Sequence record: PZ019086.1
DNA length: 64,000 nucleotides
Reading direction: 5' to 3' (one strand)
Source of the DNA: a phage
In this document: positions 1 to 60,474 of the stretch, in pieces
How positions within the stretch are numbered: the stretch's first letter is position 1
Layout of the letters: every line of letters begins with the position of its first letter
The notes under the pieces: model-generated
Databases searched by the model: none
What the model was told of the DNA's origin: nothing
Seen by the model: only the letters and a program-made list of their open reading frames with translations
Translations under genes and position numbers: made by a program

Positions 1-37
1 GATCCAATAGATGCTATTTCATTCAGAATTTTAAGAA

Positions 38-307
38 TCATTGTTCATCCTTCAGAGTTTGATTTACAGCTCTATTATAAATCAATTCATCATTAAGCTC
101 AGTTAAAGACCTATGATATGTAGTTCTAACTTTATTTCCTTGCATCCAGTGCTTGATATAAATGAAACCTTGCTCTACACATTTTTTAAAAATTCGTTCG
201 TCTTTTTGAGCTCGGAATTCTGGATTACATCTAAAGAATTGATTTACGTGACCGTAATCACGTGTAGTATTACCTTCATTTTCATAAATAGTGTGAACGA
301 CAAACAT
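38..307 (-). CDS. hypothetical early protein (30.x cluster position)
   Basis: 89-codon ORF on the early strand, tightly packed with neighbours; no motif recognised. Confidence 0.35.
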   Translation of the reverse strand: MFVVHTIYENEGNTTRDYGHVNQFFRCNPEFRAQKDERIFKKCVEQGFIYIKHWMQGNKVRTTYHRSLTELNDELIYNRAVNQTLKDEQ

Positions 308-1146
308 TAGAATGCTCCTTGGAAAATATTATCACCGCTAGTAGGTCTATTATACAAATACTCTATGCCACCAGGTTTAATATAGTTCCATGTCTGAAAC
401 GGATGTGTCTGATATGGATGATATAGATGATTATAAGGATTAAATCCAGGCGTTCTCCAGGTAGTGTTCCAAGGAAAAGAATCGTTTTTAACCATCTTCT
501 CAATTAAATCTTTTATAGCTTTTTCACTATCAAAACTTTCTTTATTTTCCTTTGGTGAAAAAAGCTTATTTTCTACATCATTCCATGTATAAACTCGCTG
601 CGCAGTTTTTGGAATATTGTCACGCTCTCCTCGAGCCATCCAATAAACCGGAACATTTAATATTTCACTCGCATGATCGCAGTGGTGAGCAAGATCGTCA
701 ATATAACAAATTACGTTATATTTCTCTTTTGCCTTTTTAAACAACTCTTCTTTTGAAGAATCATGACCACACATCATTACTTCTGAGAAGGCACCAGGAA
801 AAAGAGCATTCAAATTAAATTGACGATTCAACAGAGCGTCAATAGAATCACCCAATGCTGTAACAGCTACAAAATTATAATCTTCTTTTAATTTGTTAAT
901 TACACACAGGGCATCTTTATATGGAGACAAGTAACGAATAAAATCTGATCGATTGTATTTTTCAATTAGCTTGACACCGAGTTCTTCATCGCAATTAAAG
1001 AGTTTACCTGGAGAAATAAATTTCTCATCTTGGATCATTTTTAAAATATGTTCTAACGGAAGATTATATTTCTGAGCAAAATAAGGAAGGCCTGATTGCC
1101 AGCTTAAACATACTCCATCAATATCAGTTAAAATAGTAGGCTTCAT
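307..1146 (-). CDS. HAD-superfamily hydrolase-like protein with Pro/Tyr/Asn-rich C-terminal tail
   Basis: N-terminal D-I-D-G-V (DxDGx) motif, later T-A-L, K and Y-I-D-D segments consistent with HAD phosphatase motifs I-IV; start codon overlaps upstream ORF stop. Confidence 0.55.
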   Translation of the reverse strand: MKPTILTDIDGVCLSWQSGLPYFAQKYNLPLEHILKMIQDEKFISPGKLFNCDEELGVKLIEKYNRSDFIRYLSPYKDALCVINKLKEDYNFVAVTALGDSIDALLNRQFNLNALFPGAFSEVMMCGHDSSKEELFKKAKEKYNVICYIDDLAHHCDHASEILNVPVYWMARGERDNIPKTAQRVYTWNDVENKLFSPKENKESFDSEKAIKDLIEKMVKNDSFPWNTTWRTPGFNPYNHLYHPYQTHPFQTWNYIKPGGIEYLYNRPTSGDNIFQGAF

Positions 1147-1607
1147 AGAGAGTCTCTTAATAGATTTAACACATCAATAAATTCAGCTTCGGTTAGTATT
1201 GTATCATCTTTTGTTAGACCACTAGCCATGCTGTGCTTCAAAACTTTTCCTTTTGAGGCTTGTAATGCATCACGAAAGCCCCTGTTTTGGATCGCTGCTT
1301 CAAAATATGCATTTGTGTATAATTCTTTCCATGCTTCGGAATATCTTGAAAACGGAGTTCCAAGCCAGAACAACGTGCCACGGTCCTGAGCTCTAGCATA
1401 AGACCTTCCAGCTTGTTGGGCGGCAATCCCGGATAACCTAAATATACGTCTTTGCTGTTCAACATTTTTCACCTTACATCCTTGTAGGAATCCTTCGAGA
1501 CCTCCAAATTGAATGCCATCCATGACGAAAGGCCATTGGGCGAAATTACTTAATGCGCATGATGGCCATCTAAAATTGCTTCTTATCTCTAACTCAGACA
1601 TTTTCAA
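1143..1607 (-). CDS. NADAR (YbiA-like) domain protein
   Basis: S-N-F-A-x-W-P ... G ... E-G-F-L-Q and A-A-Q-Q-A-G-R segments resemble the E. coli YbiA/NADAR family as I recall it; 154 aa. Confidence 0.6.
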   Translation of the reverse strand: MKMSELEIRSNFRWPSCALSNFAQWPFVMDGIQFGGLEGFLQGCKVKNVEQQRRIFRLSGIAAQQAGRSYARAQDRGTLFWLGTPFSRYSEAWKELYTNAYFEAAIQNRGFRDALQASKGKVLKHSMASGLTKDDTILTEAEFIDVLNLLRDSL

Positions 1608-1800
1608 TACTTATAATTTCAACATCAGCCCAATGACCATAGCAAGGAAGACGAAATTCAACTGGCCAGTTAGGGTCCTTTTCTAATATAATAGACTGAA
1701 CTTGTGGCTCTTCATATTCATCGGTATACGGACCTTTATACGTTACTTTATATGTGACCTTAATATACTGAATTCCAAAAATCTTATTAATTATATTCAT
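1594..1800 (-). CDS. hypothetical early protein
   Basis: 68-codon ORF, overlapping stop/start with neighbours. Confidence 0.35.
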   Translation of the reverse strand: MNIINKIFGIQYIKVTYKVTYKGPYTDEYEEPQVQSIILEKDPNWPVEFRLPCYGHWADVEIISIENV

Positions 1801-1994
1801 ACTAATTCCTTTAATCCATAGATAGGAGATAATTCATCGCCCATGCGAAGGTCTTCATTTCCATCTACCCAGGAAACAATATAAGCTTCTTTTATTTGAA
1901 CGTCTCTCCATTTAAATGGAGGTAGAACCTTAGAAATTAATCCAGGTATACCGACTCCCTTTAATTCAACAGTTTGACCTAAAAAGAATTTCAT
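1797..1994 (-). CDS. hypothetical early protein
   Basis: 65-codon ORF, 4-nt overlap with downstream ORF. Confidence 0.35.
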   Translation of the reverse strand: MKFFLGQTVELKGVGIPGLISKVLPPFKWRDVQIKEAYIVSWVDGNEDLRMGDELSPIYGLKELV

Positions 1995-2281
1995 TAGAAC
2001 CTCATCTGAAAACCGTGCGATTTAACATTACCGCCGCCAATGTCAGAAATGTTAATTTCACGCGCAATTGAAGGGTCAATGTCAATTTCACGATTGAGTT
2101 TAGTGATAGCTAAAGTATCGCGCCCATTTACAGTACGGAACTCTAAAGGACATACTACATTAACGTAGTTTTTAATCGATTCGCTGGTAGGTTGCAAATG
2201 AGCAGGAAGGTCTTTAGGTGCCTTAGAGAAAACCACTTCACAGAAATTTTTGCGGGTATCAAAATAAGTAGTCATAAACAT
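1994..2281 (-). CDS. hypothetical early protein
   Basis: 95-codon ORF preceded by an intercistronic hairpin. Confidence 0.4.
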   Translation of the reverse strand: MFMTTYFDTRKNFCEVVFSKAPKDLPAHLQPTSESIKNYVNVVCPLEFRTVNGRDTLAITKLNREIDIDPSIAREINISDIGGGNVKSHGFQMRF

Positions 2282-2298
2282 AGTATTTTCCTCAGTAA

Positions 2299-2312
2299 GG
2301 GGCCGAAGCCCC
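2299..2312 (-). other. intercistronic UUCG-tetraloop hairpin
   Basis: plus GGGGC-CGAA-GCCCC, read on minus as GGGGC-UUCG-GCCCC, between two ORFs. Confidence 0.5.
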
Positions 2313-2322
2313 TCATTTTATT

Positions 2323-2688
2323 TTAAATATCAAATTCGTTAAGAACTACATCAAAGATTGCTTCAAGATGCTCAGGTTTAGCTCTGTTACTCAGAATATG
2401 ACGAATCCAAGTTTTAACCAGAAGCTTGCGATTAACGCCATTCCAACAAGGATGAGTCCCTAAATCGCGTTGACGAAAATCATCATCCAATGCGATTTTA
2501 AAAGAAGAACCTTCTTTCGTGATTGAAACCGTGATGCCATTTTCAAATCGCATATAAACGTAGTTAGGAGTCATATACTGTTCAATTTCGCATACTGATC
2601 CGTTTTGATGTTTCCAAAGGCAAATAGTATCAATAGAACCTGCAATACCATTAGAAACATATTTACGTTCAAAGTTGATGTAGTTCAT
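2323..2688 (-). CDS. hypothetical early protein
   Basis: 121-codon ORF with GGAGA Shine-Dalgarno and its own early promoter upstream. Confidence 0.45.
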   Translation of the reverse strand: MNYINFERKYVSNGIAGSIDTICLWKHQNGSVCEIEQYMTPNYVYMRFENGITVSITKEGSSFKIALDDDFRQRDLGTHPCWNGVNRKLLVKTWIRHILSNRAKPEHLEAIFDVVLNEFDI

Positions 2689-2756
2689 TTTTATTCTCCG
2701 AGATGTTTAATTGCGGTACAGGTATATAATATCATATCCTGTACCAAAGTAAACAA

Positions 2757-3089
2757 TTATTTTACTACTTTCCAGTGCTGCATGTCAAGTTTACCAACTT
2801 TTTTCATCTTCTCAATTAAGCGTTCGGCACGTTGGCGAGCTGTAACATAATACCATTCACCTAATTCATTTTGTTCAATTTTTCCAACGATTACTGTATT
2901 CAATTCATAAATCCAACCAGTAAAGAAATTATGAACTTGAATTGTAAAGGTGAAATCTGTTCCCATACCTTCTGTTGTTTCTACTTCAATAACATCACCT
3001 TCAACTGCCATTAAGAACCACATAGTTTCATCATATTTACCATTGAAGCATTTAGTTTTAACTGTGGCGTTCAGATTAATCGTTTTCAT
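2757..3089 (-). CDS. hypothetical early protein
   Basis: 110-codon ORF with AGGAG Shine-Dalgarno and promoter upstream. Confidence 0.45.
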   Translation of the reverse strand: MKTINLNATVKTKCFNGKYDETMWFLMAVEGDVIEVETTEGMGTDFTFTIQVHNFFTGWIYELNTVIVGKIEQNELGEWYYVTARQRAERLIEKMKKVGKLDMQHWKVVK

Positions 3090-3199
3090 TTTATTCTCCT
3101 TTGTTTGTGTAAGATAATACTATCACAAAGGAACTATACTGTAAACAACTTTATGCAATCTTTGGAAAATAAAAAAGGACTCCCGAAGGAGTCCTTAAC

Positions 3200-3376
3200 T
3201 TATGCTTTCTGCTTACCAAAACGAGAAGCATCATCTCGAAGAACCGCACGTGCTCGGCGCATGATCTTCTCAACAGTTTGATTGATACGAGAGTTCGACC
3301 CACGCTTGTAACCAGCGCGTTTAGAATCACCAACTTTCTTTTCAACTGCTTTCTTTGCTTTAGCTTGTTTTGCCAT
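3200..3376 (-). CDS. small Lys/Arg-rich protein
   Basis: track ORF trimmed to internal Met (MAKQAKAKK...); about 58 aa, strongly basic. Confidence 0.35.
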   Translation of the reverse strand: MAKQAKAKKAVEKKVGDSKRAGYKRGSNSRINQTVEKIMRRARAVLRDDASRFGKQKA

Positions 3377-3774
3377 TATAAATTCTCTTTTAAATGAAAA
3401 TGCAGGACTTATTGGCATTGCCTGCGCAAGCCCTCAAGGGGAACATAGGTTTTTGAATATTTAACGACCAGGATAACCATAAACCCGTCATCATACCTTA
3501 TAGCTCTTATCTGTTGCACACCGTTAGCTTAAAGGTTCCGGGTCCGATTTCTCGAGGATAAGATATATACTGATGGATATATAGGCCTTGAGGCGTACTC
3601 CCGATTAGCCATCACCTCGGGGTAGCATGCACTTGCCGCTATAAGAATAACATTCAAGAGGTACACCGTAAAACTGCCGGGGTCTTAAAACTATAATGAT
3701 TCGCAAATCATTAATCAGACAGTTCGACGGCTCCTCGATTTTAGCTCACACTAAGGCAGTGAATCTCCAATAAA

Positions 3775-4023
3775 TTACTTCAGTGTTACCACAAAGTGAC
3801 GAACTGCTTTTCGTGCAGCAGAAGCCAGAGGCTTAGCATATTTAAGTTCATCTTTTTCCTGAAGCTCAGCAGCTAATGCAGTTTGAGCAGGATTCAGATG
3901 TTTGAAATAACGCAGGATTTCAAGAGCTTCGGCTTCAACATCAATAGATGCGCCATAGTTTTCGTGACCATTATTCCATGCGTTTCGTTGCAGTTCAAGA
4001 GCGTGTTGTAATTGTTTAATCAT
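3775..4023 (-). CDS. rIII: rIII lysis-inhibition accessory protein
   Basis: 82 aa, sequence matches T4 rIII as I remember it (MIKQLQHALELQRNAWNNGHENY...). Confidence 0.85.
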   Translation of the reverse strand: MIKQLQHALELQRNAWNNGHENYGASIDVEAEALEILRYFKHLNPAQTALAAELQEKDELKYAKPLASAARKAVRHFVVTLK

Positions 4024-4162
4024 TTAAAAATTCTCGTTAGAGATTAAAACTCGGTAGTCACGTTCTTCTGAATTTCATCTTCTTTCGACAGATCTCTCAG
4101 TTGTAGACTACCACATAGAATTGTTCGGTTAACTTATTATTCCGACACCCAATTCATATTAT

Positions 4163-4170
4163 TATTTATA
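4163..4170 (-). promoter_or_regulatory. late promoter core TATAAATA (minus strand)
   Basis: exact TATAAATA on the minus strand about 140 nt upstream of rIII. Confidence 0.4.
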
Positions 4171-4506
4171 TCACTTATAAAGACACGGAATAGCTTTATA
4201 GTGACAGGTAACGAATTTTTGTTTAATTTCTTTTGGCTGCTTAAGACCCAGAGCTACAAAAGGATGCGGAACGTTTCGAATTTGACCAACTGGAAGAGAA
4301 GTCAAATCACCAACTTCGCAGAAACCTTCAGGAACATCAGGACCAACAGAGTGAACTACACACAGTTCAGGAACTTCACCTTGAACACGTTTACCGATAA
4401 TAAGTCCTGATTCTGTAACTTCTTCATCACCGGCTTGTGCAGGTTCAGAAACTAAAATAACATATTCACCGACAGCACGAATTGGTAGCTGTTGTACTTC
4501 AGACAT
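4171..4506 (-). CDS. 31: gp31 co-chaperonin (GroES-like) for capsid folding
   Basis: 111 aa, matches T4 gp31 ([29 protein letters not shown]...). Confidence 0.9.
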
Positions 4507-13665: not shown

Positions 13666-15929
13666 TATAATTTACACGCTGCGCAATCATCGGCTTTTGG
13701 AGCTTCTATTTCATAATCATCAGTACCAGAACCATCGCGGGTATTATGATAATAGAAATTTTTAATGCCATAATACCATCCGTATAGCATGTCATCAATC
13801 ATTATTGACATTGGAACCTTTCCTTTTGGAAAAATCTGTGGGTCATAATATGTATTCGCTGAAGCTGATTGACATACCCATTTCAGCATAATAGCTACTT
13901 GCGTAAGATAAGGTTTATTACCTTTCTTAGCTAATTTCCATGTATAATCATAGAGGTCTATGTTATGTTCAATATTGGGCACGACTTGATTAAAGGAACC
14001 CTCTTTTGATTCTTTAACAGAGACTGGTCCACGTGGAGGCTCGATACCGTTTGTACTGTTAGAAACTTGGGAAGATGACTCACATGGCATAAGTGCTGAT
14101 AATGTGCTATTACGGATGCCAAAGAGCTTAAGGTCTTCCCGCAGCGACGACCAGTCACAAACGTATTTTGGAGCTGCGATTTGGTCAATCTTTTTATTGT
14201 ACCAGTCGATAGGTAATTCGCCTCGAGACCAACGAGTGTCTGAATAATATTCGCAAGGTCCTTTTTCTTTGGCGAGCTTAATTGATGCTTTAATGAGTCC
14301 ATACTGCAATCTCTCAAATAGTTCATGTGTTAAATCGTTAGCATCTTCGTAAGAAGCAAAATTACTTGCTAGCCAAGCTGCATAGTTAGTAACACCTACG
14401 CCAAGGTTTCGACGTTTTTTAGCTTTTTCTGCTTCAGGAACTGGATATCCTTGGTAATCCAAAAGATTATCAAGAGCACGAACTTGGACTTCTGCCAATT
14501 CATTAATTTTATCTTGGTCTTGCCAATCAAAGTTATCTAACACAAATGCAGATAACGTACACAATCCAATTTCAGCATCAGGACTATTCACATCATTTGT
14601 TGGAATAGCAATTTCACAACACAAGTTACTCTGACGAATAGGTGCCTTTTCACGAATAAATGGCGTATAGTTATTCGTATTATCAATGAACTGTACATAA
14701 ATCCTTGCTGTTCCTGAGCGTTCAGTCATGAGCAATTCAAACAGTTCACGGGCTTTAATGCGCTTTTTACGAATATTAGGGTCTTTTTCTGCGGCTTCGT
14801 ATAATTCACGGAAACGGTCTTGGTCTTTAAAATAAGAATAATAAAGTTCGCCACCCATTTCATGTGGACTGAACAAAGTGATGTAATCATTCTTTCCGAA
14901 TCGTTCCATCATTAGGTCATTCAGTTGAACGCCATAATCCATATGACGGATACGGTTTTCTTCTACACCTTTGTTATTTTTCAAAACGAGAAGATTTTCA
15001 ACTTCCAAATGCCAAATAGGATAATAAGCAGTAGCAGCGCCGCCACGAATTCCACCCTGTGAACATGATTTAACAGCAGTTTGAAAATGTTTCCAAAAAG
15101 GAATAACACCAGTATGACGTACTTCACCTGTGCCAATCTTAGAACCTTCGGCACGAATCATACCAACGTTAATACCAATTCCAGCACGTTTGGAGATATA
15201 TTCAACAATTGAAGCGGAAGCCTTATTGATAGACTTTAATGAATCACCCGCCTCAATAACAACGCATGAACTAAACTGTCGAGTTGGAGTACGGCAACCA
15301 GCCATAATAGGAGTTGGCAATGAAATCTGTCGAGTAGATACTGCTTCATAAAAACGAATAACGTGTTTTAATCTATCAACAGGTTCATCTTGATGTAATG
15401 CCATTCCAATAGTCATAAATGCAAACTGCGGAGTTTCATAAATTTGACCAGTGGTTTTATCTTTAACTAGATATTTTTCTTTTAATTGCATCGCCCCGGA
15501 ATAAGTAAATTCCATATCCCGCTCATGCTTAATTTTTGATTCTAAAAATGTAATTTCTTCAGCAGAATATTTTGACAACAATTCAGGGTCATATTTACCT
15601 TCATTTACACAGTAAGAAATATGGTCAATAAATGAACGTGGTTCATATTGCCCGTAAACATGCTTACGAAGAGCAAACATTAAACACCGTGCAGCTACAT
15701 ATTGATAATCAGGCTCTTCAACTGAAATAGAATTCGCAGCAGCCTTAATGACAATAGTCTGAATGTCATCAGTTGTCATTCCATCACGGAGATATGATTT
15801 AATATTTTCATATAATTCATAAGGATCTACAGATGTTCCTTCAGCTGCCCAGGATAAAACTTTAATAATTTTTTGCGGGTCAAAGCTCTGAGAAACACCA
15901 CTACTTTTGATAACATTAATTAATTGCAT
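13665..15929 (-). CDS. nrdA: ribonucleotide reductase large subunit
   Basis: 754 aa; class Ia RNR alpha sequence. Confidence 0.95.
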   Translation of the reverse strand: MQLINVIKSSGVSQSFDPQKIIKVLSWAAEGTSVDPYELYENIKSYLRDGMTTDDIQTIVIKAAANSISVEEPDYQYVAARCLMFALRKHVYGQYEPRSFIDHISYCVNEGKYDPELLSKYSAEEITFLESKIKHERDMEFTYSGAMQLKEKYLVKDKTTGQIYETPQFAFMTIGMALHQDEPVDRLKHVIRFYEAVSTRQISLPTPIMAGCRTPTRQFSSCVVIEAGDSLKSINKASASIVEYISKRAGIGINVGMIRAEGSKIGTGEVRHTGVIPFWKHFQTAVKSCSQGGIRGGAATAYYPIWHLEVENLLVLKNNKGVEENRIRHMDYGVQLNDLMMERFGKNDYITLFSPHEMGGELYYSYFKDQDRFRELYEAAEKDPNIRKKRIKARELFELLMTERSGTARIYVQFIDNTNNYTPFIREKAPIRQSNLCCEIAIPTNDVNSPDAEIGLCTLSAFVLDNFDWQDQDKINELAEVQVRALDNLLDYQGYPVPEAEKAKKRRNLGVGVTNYAAWLASNFASYEDANDLTHELFERLQYGLIKASIKLAKEKGPCEYYSDTRWSRGELPIDWYNKKIDQIAAPKYVCDWSSLREDLKLFGIRNSTLSALMPCESSSQVSNSTNGIEPPRGPVSVKESKEGSFNQVVPNIEHNIDLYDYTWKLAKKGNKPYLTQVAIMLKWVCQSASANTYYDPQIFPKGKVPMSIMIDDMLYGWYYGIKNFYYHNTRDGSGTDDYEIEAPKADDCAACKL

Positions 15930-16246
15930 AAGTCCTCAACTTGAAAATCGTCTTTAAACAATCGGTTAACTATATGAGCTATTATATCACCATGACACGG
16001 CTTTGGTTTACATGTGCATCCTAGCCTCATTCCACGTAAAGGCTCTAAATGTGCTTTAGTTATTTCTCCGGATTTAATTCGACGTATAAAATCTTTTTTG
16101 AATAATTCAATGGCAGCCTCCCGGCTGCCAGCATCTTTACCGACGTAATTTCCCCAAAATGTACCACGGTGAATATTAACATCAAAGTCGGATTTATATT
16201 TATTCACTACCTGGCATAGACGGCCCGCGCGGTAATAATTCGTCAT
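15920..16246 (-). CDS. DUF4326-like protein
   Basis: C-terminal [13 protein letters not shown] signature I associate with DUF4326; 108 aa. Confidence 0.5.
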
Positions 16247-54118: not shown

Positions 54119-54721
54119 TTATAGATTAAATCCTTCAAAATCAAGAGTATAGATAGTGTATGTTGAATACTTTTTATACTCGTATCTATCCGCAATTCTA
54201 AATACACTTCCAGCTGGTATCATTACTTCTTGTTCATCTGAAACTAATTCCATATTACGATAACGATGGCTATCTGGAAACTTAAAACTTGGACTATATT
54301 CTTTACAACGTAGAGCTTTTATAGCATACTCCTGGAAATTAAATACCATAGGAGCTTTGAATTCAAAAATAACTTGTGTGTTGTATTCTAATCCAGAAGC
54401 AAAATGTATAGCTATATTTTTATCATATGAAGCTGATACTACTTTATCAAATGTAATAATATCAATTCCTTGATTTAACACCTGCTTAGTCTCAACTGGA
54501 ACACCTCTCCAAAGAGGTTTATCGTTTGGTTCCAAACGAGATTTGATTATTTCATTTAACCAAGAATGATCGTCTGGCTTATTAGTAATACAATGAATTA
54601 AAAGTTCAATTTCGGATAAATTAAATCCTTCAGAAAGTAATTCTTCACGAATAGAAGCACGCACAGATGCATCCATTGATTTGATTTTAAAATCTTTTAA
54701 TTGCATTGCTGAATATTTCAT
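54119..54721 (-). CDS. modA: ADP-ribosyltransferase ModA
   Basis: 200 aa; R ... S ... E-Q-E-V pattern consistent with R-S-ExE ADP-ribosyltransferases. Confidence 0.8.
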   Translation of the reverse strand: MKYSAMQLKDFKIKSMDASVRASIREELLSEGFNLSEIELLIHCITNKPDDHSWLNEIIKSRLEPNDKPLWRGVPVETKQVLNQGIDIITFDKVVSASYDKNIAIHFASGLEYNTQVIFEFKAPMVFNFQEYAIKALRCKEYSPSFKFPDSHRYRNMELVSDEQEVMIPAGSVFRIADRYEYKKYSTYTIYTLDFEGFNL

Positions 54722-55341
54722 TCAACTACCTCAATATCATACACTTTAAATGTTCCAAATGAATCGTGTAATTTTTCTTTTGAAATAGAAGTTATTTTAT
54801 ACTTTCCAATTGGAATCATCCATTCTTGTTCACGTACAATCATCATTAAGTTATCAGTACGTTCTGAATCTAATCCATCAGTATCTTCATATGTATACTT
54901 AAACTCAGTATTAGGAGAAGAAAGTATAATATCGCTGATATGGTCAGAATAATTAAAAGCTTTATCAGTTTTTAAGCGAAATATTATTTCAGTGGAATAT
55001 TCAACATAAGAAAAACCACATGCTGTGTGCAAACTAGTAGTAAATGAATCTACTCTGTTCGTTGAAAACACTTCTCCAACTTGTAAATCTTTAATGAGTT
55101 CTTTTGTCGATTTTGATATACCACGATATAGCTGATAAGGCGATTTAGTTAAATGCTTTTTAACGATTTTATTCAACTGCTGATGAAGAGCTTCATTCTT
55201 TTTGGCTTCCATACATTGCCAAAGAATTGACTGTTCAAAGTCCGTAAATTTTTCACAGACCTTTTTATACATATCATATTGAAAATCAACACTTTCAGCT
55301 TTTATAGATAGCTGTTCAACATCTGCAAGATTAATAATCAT
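54718..55341 (-). CDS. modB: ADP-ribosyltransferase ModB
   Basis: 207 aa; paralog of ModA with E-Q-E-W motif. Confidence 0.8.
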   Translation of the reverse strand: MIINLADVEQLSIKAESVDFQYDMYKKVCEKFTDFEQSILWQCMEAKKNEALHQQLNKIVKKHLTKSPYQLYRGISKSTKELIKDLQVGEVFSTNRVDSFTTSLHTACGFSYVEYSTEIIFRLKTDKAFNYSDHISDIILSSPNTEFKYTYEDTDGLDSERTDNLMMIVREQEWMIPIGKYKITSISKEKLHDSFGTFKVYDIEVVE

Positions 55342-59847: not shown

Positions 59848-60474
59848 TTAACCTCTATTCATAAAAGCATTAAAAATTTGGTCATCAATAGAAACATCTA
59901 CTTTAGACTGTTTTTCTGATGGTAATTCATATCCACATATTACAATTTTGTGATCAATATCAAAATACACAGAAGCAATATGATTAATGGTGTTTTCAGT
60001 AAAGTCTAAATCAACATCAATATCTTTTTGACCACAGCCCAAAGGATAAATAATGCGAGTAATTCGATTATCTTTAACAAAGATTCCACCGACATACTCT
60101 GTGCTGCGTTTAAAGTCTACGCGCCGACGAAATGAAAAATATTCAGGCTCTTTATGAGCTCTGCTCATAGGACATAACGAGTAACTAGAATAAGAGATGT
60201 CAAATCCTACGCCTTCAATATGAGCCAAATTATCATGATTAAACCAATTATAATCGTACGCCAAGTCCATTAGATTATAATATGTAAAAGGCACCGGATT
60301 AACGTCATTAGTCACAAGCATGTAATTAGCAACTGCTATAATTTCATTGTTTTTAACGAATACAAACCGTGATTGATGCGAATGACCTGGACCCGCGTTT
60401 TCACGATTAATGATATAACACTGGGCACCTTTATATTTGTATGTATCTTTGCACTTGTGCATTTGATAGAGCAT
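59848..60474 (-). CDS. hypothetical early protein
   Basis: 208-codon ORF. Confidence 0.45.
   Translation of the reverse strand: MLYQMHKCKDTYKYKGAQCYIINRENAGPGHSHQSRFVFVKNNEIIAVANYMLVTNDVNPVPFTYYNLMDLAYDYNWFNHDNLAHIEGVGFDISYSSYSLCPMSRAHKEPEYFSFRRRVDFKRSTEYVGGIFVKDNRITRIIYPLGCGQKDIDVDLDFTENTINHIASVYFDIDHKIVICGYELPSEKQSKVDVSIDDQIFNAFMNRG

Follow-up and report, generated by a model that had tools for sequence, protein, structure and literature searches.

The open reading frame at positions 1143 to 1607 of the window, which is the whole 64,000-nucleotide stretch of phage DNA analysed here (record PZ019086.1), is with a probability of about 0.93 the gene adfN (T4 gene 30.3), encoding an orphan antitoxin-like NADAR enzyme that acts against DarTG1. 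Both gene and function are already known in the literature under this name, through biochemistry in 2024, genetics and naming in 2025 and a genome-wide screen in 2025. The prediction made from the DNA is consequently correct but not new, as the function had been shown experimentally for T4 gp30.3 in 2024-2025; reading from sequence alone recovered a real counter-defence gene whose biology was already established. For annotation, the outcome is that 1143-1601 on the minus strand is to be called adfN, a full-length and presumably active allele.

In the mechanism that we propose for this phage, infection of a host with the DarTG1 toxin-antitoxin system would release the DarT1 toxin, which would ADP-ribosylate guanine in the phage single-stranded DNA and thereby block replication. 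AdfN, produced from the 30.7-to-30 block, in which the genes are tightly packed, would then cut the N-glycosidic bond that joins ADP-ribose to guanine by means of Glu36, Lys43 and the phage-type His123, and replication would proceed on the restored DNA. The enzyme would neither bind the toxin nor act on thymine-ADP-ribose, so that DarTG2 would not be countered.

Genome setting and gene model

The genome in the window is of Tequatrovirus (T4-like) type. Its identity to other genomes of this genus is 97%, and bases 1-3000 share 95-98% identity with hundreds of T-even phage records. The minus-strand gene order in the window is 30.6, 30.5, 30.4, 30.3, 30.2, 30.1 and the start of DNA ligase, identical to the order in T4. 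The original prediction had reported an ORF at 1143-1607, and this reading frame is indeed present on the minus strand, with a length of 154 aa counted from a TTG at 1607. The start of adfN is probably the ATG at 1601, two codons inside the TTG ORF, giving a gene at 1143..1601 on the minus strand with a predicted 152-aa product, a DNA ADP-ribosylglycohydrolase of the NADAR family. This start was preferred because the annotations of T4 and of phage W143 begin there, and because with the 152-aa numbering the catalytic residues fall at E36 and K43, as published.

Comparison with T4 gp30.3 showed 146 of 152 identical residues (96%) in a full-length, gap-free alignment, and the two genes occupy the same place, flanked by 30.4 and 30.2 and upstream of DNA ligase. 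The six substitutions that set the window allele apart from T4 (G55R, L59I, V82T, P89E, K107R and I125M) are not catalytic and leave E36, K43 and H123 untouched, and M125 is the family-consensus residue in an alignment of 56 homologs. The gene adfN was found in 1,511 phage records. A scan of positions 1-4500 for promoters and terminators gave 19 candidates in comparison to 14.7 +/- 3.5 in shuffled sequences, and thus neither enrichment nor firm transcription-unit boundaries.

The overlapping ORF 30.3' (1238-1465) was also considered as an independent gene and rejected, its product being 82% identical to that of T4 in comparison to 96% for the main frame. Measured as run length at any position, this alternative frame is open for about 76 codons in Gaprivervirus P896 and 78 codons in Acinetobacter Lazarusvirus, and the longest open runs in five other lineages are 38-58 codons. 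Taken together, the identity to T4 and the open-run lengths across the seven lineages gave no sign of independent selection on the 30.3' frame.

Assignment to the NADAR superfamily

The window AdfN matched the Pfam family PF08010 (Phage_30_3) with 230.1 bits (cut-off 36; E = 9e-69) over profile positions 1-138 of 138, while the Pfam NADAR model PF08719 gave no match to it with E-values up to 10 allowed. Both PF08010 and PF08719 are recorded for one homolog, P0156. Membership of the NADAR superfamily therefore rests on hhalign and on the fold, since PF08719 is without a match and PF08010 is a sister Pfam family. A plain phmmer search of AdfN against the PDB had as its weak top match E. coli YbiA (E = 0.38), in which LSNFAQWP of AdfN was aligned with FSNFAAWP. 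When a profile was built from the family alignment of 56 homologs (35-86% identity), YbiA was the sole PDB match (E = 0.0016), and hhalign of the family alignment against YbiA gave a probability of 94% (E = 1.3e-7).

An AlphaFold (AF2) model calculated from the 56-sequence alignment reached a pLDDT of 94.1 and a pTM of 0.89, in comparison to a single-sequence run on the 152-aa protein that gave an unusable model (pLDDT 36.7). The predicted NADAR/YbiA fold of the window product therefore stands up on both the profile comparison and the alignment-based model. The original prediction had called this product a NADAR or YbiA-like protein and had proposed HHpred or a structure prediction with attention to the catalytic residues as a check; the PF08010 score, the hhalign match, the confidence of the model and the conservation of the catalytic residues all agree with that call. 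It had also pointed out a shared S-N-F-A-x-W-P segment, which is borne out by residues S18-N19-F20-A21-Q22-W23-P24 (codons at 1530..1550, minus strand) aligning to FSNFAAWP of YbiA.

Catalytic residues and the C-terminal helix

Across the 56 homologs the residues L17-S18-N19-F20, E36-G37-F38, Q40 and H123 are invariant. The conserved Glu and Lys of the E-x-x-x-Q-x-x-K segment are both present in the window AdfN, where the catalytic Glu36 (codon GAA, 1494..1496, minus strand) stands opposite YbiA E48 in the hhalign alignment and Lys43 (codon AAG, 1473..1475, minus strand), kept in at least 90% of the homologs, stands opposite YbiA K55. That alignment ends at AdfN K122 and YbiA V124, and with the register carried one residue further His123 (codon CAC, 1233..1235, minus strand) falls opposite YbiA E125. 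The residue at this last-strand position separates the clades, being His in phage NADARs, Glu in the YbiA clade and Asp in DarT1-linked NADARs (Schuller et al. 2023). In T4 AdfN the E36A substitution abolished activity in vitro and impaired it in vivo, and K43A was likewise impaired, although E36A and K43A still gave partial rescue in vivo (PMC11825919).

The C-terminal helix (about residues 138-152; codons at 1143..1189, minus strand) spans residues 138-151 in the model and is intact in the window allele, which is colinear with T4 gp30.3 up to the stop codon; the three catalytic residues and this helix are thus common to both proteins. RB69 carries the same gene at the same locus as a natural loss-of-function allele, in which a T inserted at nucleotide 411 shifts the frame and the last 15 residues are lost, and this phage is DarTG1-sensitive (PMC11825919), whereas the window allele is full length. 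Loss of these 15 residues, as in the RB69 allele, reduces AdfN activity (PMC11825919). An apparent RB69-like truncation in phage Ozark, suggested by a tblastn coverage of 1-144, was traced to an ambiguous base in its sequence record.

Other members of the superfamily differ from the window protein in several respects. The DarG1 NADARs (G. lovleyi 8bat; E. coli C7) are encoded beside a DarT gene and have Asp at the last-strand catalytic position, whereas the window AdfN has His and is an orphan, there being no ART family matches in the neighbouring genes 30.4 and 30.2 and no adjacent DarT1 gene. The orphan status of the phage NADAR has also been described in the literature (PMC11825919). YbiA (2b3w) and the Phytophthora NADAR (8bau) share about 20% identity with AdfN and carry Glu where AdfN has His123; YbiA is furthermore chromosomal, belongs to a LexA-controlled operon and has been linked to riboflavin-intermediate N-glycosidase activity (PMC11125620; Schuller et al. 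2023).

Published function of the T4 protein and expectations for the window allele

According to the survey PMC9503650 and Schuller et al. 2023, phage NADARs were catalogued between 2012 and 2022, and the structural and mechanistic basis of NADAR activity was provided by Schuller et al. 2023. The NADARs that have been assayed are inactive on thymidine-ADPr, their substrate being guanine-linked ADP-ribose on DNA (Schuller et al. 2023; PMC11125620), and T4 gp30.3 itself hydrolysed guanosine-ADPr and not thymidine-ADPr in vitro (Toxins 2024, PMC11125620). DarTG1 resistance of T2 and T4 was subsequently mapped to gene 30.3, which was renamed adfN (anti-DarT factor NADAR) and whose product is both necessary and sufficient against DarTG1 (Johannesman et al., Nat Commun 2025, PMC11825919). 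In that work delta-adfN T4 and T2 formed no plaques on DarTG1 cells, RB69 was rescued by ectopic adfN-T4, and purified AdfN-T4 but not E36A removed ADP-ribose from DarT1-modified DNA (PMC11825919). No AdfN-DarT1 interaction was seen in a two-hybrid assay, and DarTG2, which modifies thymine where DarTG1 modifies guanine, was not countered (PMC11825919).

An independent T4 transposon screen confirmed this role and showed gene 30.3 to be non-essential on plain K-12, with insertions that carried no fitness cost in the absence of DarTG1 (bioRxiv 10.1101/2025.11.20.689424). Under DarTG1 the mean reads for its 28 sites fell from 261 to 0.7 (log2FC -7.25, adjusted p 0), and only two T4 genes, 30.3 and 30.4, were significant (bioRxiv 10.1101/2025.11.20.689424). 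The original prediction had put the NADAR protein forward as a candidate counter-defence against DarTG-type systems, and for the 96%-identical T4 protein this role has been shown against DarTG1 only and not against DarTG2.

From the 96% identity to T4 gp30.3 we infer that the window allele would hydrolyse guanine-ADP-ribose on DNA and would be needed by this phage for growth on DarTG1 hosts. The AdfN of this phage is predicted to be active, and the phage to resist DarTG1, because the protein is full length, its C-terminal helix is kept and none of the six residues that differ from T4 is catalytic.

Alternatively, AdfN might mainly process soluble molecules derived from ADP-ribose or NAD, as immune signals or in salvage, or riboflavin intermediates in the manner of YbiA, with a secondary role on DNA. 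In a survey that preceded the experiments, a preference of phage NADARs for low-molecular-weight ADPr derivatives was proposed (PMC9503650). In addition, the Aeromonas phage CC2 homolog lies near NAD-salvage genes for ribose-phosphate pyrophosphokinase and nicotinamide phosphoribosyltransferase, and the weak NCBIfam match of AdfN is to a riboflavin-intermediate N-glycosidase model. We nevertheless regard this alternative as very unlikely, given that for the T4 ortholog both activity on DNA and a DarTG1-specific phenotype were shown directly, that the gene is non-essential when DarTG1 is absent and that adfN in the window is not placed beside NAD-salvage genes. Other substrates may exist within the phage NADAR family at large, as homologs in other lineages lie among NAD-salvage or tRNA genes, and for the window protein guanine-linked ADP-ribose on DNA is retained as the expected substrate.

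The published rescue experiments also indicate that AdfN does not work in every setting. AdfN-T4 gave uninfected E. coli no protection against DarT1, where it is no replacement for DarG1, and it barely rescued phages T5 and Bas25 (PMC11825919, PMC11125620). Something of T-even infection is therefore needed, and the authors suggested a further T-even protein (PMC11825919). The two genes that flank adfN bear on this suggestion.

The downstream gene 30.2

Gene 30.2 (307..1146, minus strand) lies directly downstream of adfN and encodes a 279-aa protein that is 97% identical to T4 30.2. The original prediction had described this neighbour as a HAD-type hydrolase with a DxDGx motif, and a DIDG is found at residues 8-11. 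All four HAD motifs were conserved across 41 homologs, where the residues of motif I (D8, D10 and G11) and motif III (K132) are invariant and those of motif II (T96) and motif IV (D150-D151) are kept in at least 90%. The window protein had no Pfam match at E up to 10, no NCBIfam match and no named PHROGs match; among its homologs, 12 of the 41 weakly match PF00702 and 8 of the 41 match PF06941 (NT5C), with a best E-value of 1.2e-4. The family profile found a single PDB match, the 5'(3')-deoxyribonucleotidase 2jao, which was weak (E = 0.08) and lay on the DxDG motif. HAD membership thus rests on the motifs and on weak homolog matches, because Pfam, NCBIfam and PHROGs give no functional name, and gene 30.2 plausibly encodes a candidate HAD phosphatase of NT5C-like type.

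The two genes are joined by a 4-nt ATGA in which the adfN stop codon TGA (1143-1145) overlaps the 30.2 start codon ATG (1144-1146), adfN being upstream on the minus strand. The original prediction had noticed this overlap and had its direction reversed, with the start of 30.3 on the stop of the HAD gene. Such an arrangement could be read as a two-enzyme module in which the 30.2 phosphatase processes the released ADP-ribose or phosphoribosyl remnant and is itself the missing T-even factor that AdfN needs. This reading would also fit with the 30.3-30.2-ligase order being kept in Acinetobacter Lazarusvirus and with the presence of both genes in about 1,450-1,500 phage records (1,453 for 30.2) with nearly the same host spread.

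The overlap, however, is not specific to this pair, since start/stop overlaps of 1-8 nt are the rule throughout the 30.6-to-30 block, and the co-occurrence says little, since both genes are near-universal in T4-like phages. Synteny is also broken in both directions. NADAR genes were found in the tRNA region of Salmonella S16 and of a Klebsiella JD18-like phage, between replication genes in a Vibrio phage and adjoining a helicase in an Ochrobactrum phage, and neither annotation nor tblastn placed a 30.2 homolog within about 4 kb of the NADAR gene in these four groups or in the Aeromonas phage. Conversely, in Klebsiella, Shewanella and two metagenomic phages the 30.2 homologs adjoin DNA ligase and have no PF08010 gene in their neighbourhood. 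Insertions in 30.2 (71 sites) were neutral under DarTG1 (log2FC -0.12, adjusted p 1.0; bioRxiv 10.1101/2025.11.20.689424).

On the T4 transposon data and the broken synteny, 30.2 was rejected as a partner of AdfN and a two-enzyme module is considered extremely unlikely; the functional link between NADAR gene and HAD neighbour implied by the original prediction did not survive this comparison. In the search for the T-even-specific factor that AdfN needs, the adjacent HAD-like 30.2 can be set aside.

The upstream gene 30.4

Gene 30.4 (1594..1800, minus strand; 68 aa) lies directly upstream of adfN, with an 8-nt overlap between its stop and the start of adfN (ATGTCTGA); because of this overlap, translation of adfN is probably coupled to that of 30.4. 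Gene 30.4 was the sole other gene depleted under DarTG1 in the T4 screen (log2FC -1.79, adjusted p 0.014), a signal that is not discussed in the main text of the screen paper (bioRxiv 10.1101/2025.11.20.689424). The simplest reading of this depletion is polarity, or lost translational coupling, onto adfN that would lower adfN expression. Alternatively, gp30.4 could be a real T-even-specific helper of AdfN, which we consider very unlikely; if true, the success of AdfN-T4 in RB69 infection, and not in uninfected cells or with T5 and Bas25, would be accounted for. Homologs of 30.4 occur in 711 phage records, mostly of enterobacterial T-even-type phages (Escherichia, Shigella, Yersinia and Salmonella), in comparison to 1,511 for adfN, and several from Escherichia phages show about 52% identity. 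None was found adjoining a NADAR gene in distant phages.

Other ADP-ribose genes in the window

The ModA, ModB and DUF4326-like proteins that had been named alongside the NADAR gene in the original prediction are all encoded in the window, modA at 54119-54721, modB at 54718-55341 and the DUF4326 protein at 15920-16246, the last being the ortholog of T4 nrdA.1 (96% identity). ModA and ModB are protein-modifying ADP-ribosyltransferases. In the annotation of the T4 record the proteins that they modify are RNA polymerase alpha, S1 and EF-Tu.

From these genes it had been suggested that the phage both writes and erases ADP-ribose marks, and AdfN might accordingly be thought to erase what the phage's own transferases (Alt, ModA and ModB) have written. 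Beyond the presence of ModA and ModB in the window, this idea draws on the position of alt in T4, where it has the same orientation as 30.3 and lies four genes downstream, and on a description of T4-like NADARs as early genes that are co-expressed with transferases (PMC9503650). Against it, the substrate shown for NADARs is guanine-ADP-ribose on DNA, with thymidine-ADPr left untouched, the targets given for ModA and ModB in the T4 record are proteins, and no AdfN activity on protein-linked ADP-ribose was found in the literature examined. Insertions in 30.3 are moreover free of cost without DarTG1, and insertions in alt and in 61.2 were neutral under DarTG1 (bioRxiv 10.1101/2025.11.20.689424). 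We found nothing that ties ModA, ModB or the DUF4326 protein to AdfN.

We therefore give a cycle of writing and erasing next to no credence, because ModA and ModB are annotated as acting on proteins and AdfN acts on guanine-ADP-ribose in DNA, and because the DarTG1-significant genes of T4 are restricted to the two described above, with alt and 61.2 neutral. The original suggestion is true in a loose sense, the marks that AdfN is shown to remove being host-made guanine-ADP-ribose on DNA and no result linking it to phage-made ones; the phrase 'writes and erases ADP-ribose' describes two unrelated activities and no cycle. The window additionally carries, at 59848..60474 on the minus strand, adfA, an ortholog of T4 gene 61.2 with a product 96.7% identical to gp61.2, and T-even phages have AdfA as their other published anti-DarT factor (PMC11825919).

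Anti-DarT genes and the upstream gene 30.4

In addition to adfN, the ortholog of T4 gene 30.3 that encodes a NADAR-family anti-DarT1 enzyme, the window was found to carry an ortholog of T4 61.2 (AdfA; 59848-60474, minus strand; 96.7% identity), an anti-DarT factor that binds the toxin, and this phage therefore possesses both published anti-DarT1 genes. Another gene, tk.4 (adfM), was reported in 2025 as an anti-DarTG2 macrodomain gene. The original prediction of a DUF4326-like protein at 15920-16246 (minus strand) was borne out, as this gene is the ortholog of T4 nrdA.1 (96% identity). The DUF4326 domain has been proposed to be rhodanese-phosphatase-like and to target ribose-linked phosphates of ADP-ribose breakdown products (PMC9503650).

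Public T4 transposon data (bioRxiv 10.1101/2025.11.20.689424) showed significant depletion under the DarTG1 toxin-antitoxin defence for adfN (30.3) and 30.4 and for no other gene, and nrdA.1 was accordingly not significant in this screen. Gene 30.4 (1594-1800, minus strand) lies immediately upstream of adfN, overlaps its start by 8 nt and encodes a 68-aa product for which the family search returned no match. Its depletion under DarTG1 (log2FC -1.79, adjusted p 0.014) can be interpreted either as a polar effect or as the signature of a genuine helper; the gene is unmentioned in the main text of the screen paper. Homologues of 30.4 occurred in 711 phage records, the majority from enterobacterial T-even-type phages, and in the Gaprivervirus Escherichia phage P896 (locus L018, 774-1208) the adfN homolog is preceded by two tandem 30.4 paralogs, which are 41% and 29% identical to the 30.4 product of the window.

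Gene neighbourhoods of 30.2 and NADAR homologs

The HAD-like gene 30.2 (307-1146, minus strand), immediately downstream of adfN, was compared with other phage loci (L004, L010-L015) and adjoined the DNA ligase gene, or was separated from it by 1-2 small ORFs, in each lineage examined (phages of Escherichia, Klebsiella, Acinetobacter and Shewanella, and metagenomic phages). Residues 1-195 form the conserved core of the 30.2 homologs, followed by an aromatic- and Pro-rich C-terminal tail that is variable or missing and in several homologs contains a recurring G-I-E-Y-L-x-x-Q-P-T motif. A role linked to ligase or in nick processing would be a candidate function for 30.2.

Aeromonas phage CC2 (locus L005, 4001-8447) encodes a NADAR homolog (39% identity) near ribose-phosphate pyrophosphokinase and nicotinamide phosphoribosyltransferase genes. 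This neighbourhood makes a role in NAD metabolism possible, and in some lineages members of this phage NADAR clade may serve NAD metabolism instead of, or besides, anti-DarT defence.

Internal frame, reported construct length and candidate regulatory elements

The T4-annotated internal out-of-frame ORF 30.3' (75 aa; 1238-1465, minus strand) is intact in the window, with its product sharing 82% identity with T4 in comparison to 96% for the main frame. The alternative frame was also open in Gaprivervirus P896 and in Acinetobacter Lazarusvirus (78 codons), while the longest open runs in the remaining five lineages checked were 38-58 codons; neither the identity to T4 nor this open-frame comparison showed separate selection on 30.3'.

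The methods of a 2024 Toxins paper (PMC11125620) describe the T4 gp30.3 construct as 'residues 1-208'. The length of T4 gp30.3 is 152 aa, and that of gp61.2 (AdfA) is 208 aa (627 nt with stop; T4 record coordinates). The stated range may reflect a typographical error or another construct length.

Promoter and terminator scanning of positions 1-4500 revealed no overall enrichment in comparison to shuffled sequences. Individual elements included a GC-rich hairpin between 30.7 and 30.6 (AGGGGCCGAAGCCCCT; 2298-2313, plus strand), a terminator-like hairpin with a T-run between 30.9 and 30.8 (3175-3196, minus strand) and a near-consensus promoter-like site, TTGACA-18-TAAAAT (2788-2759, minus strand).
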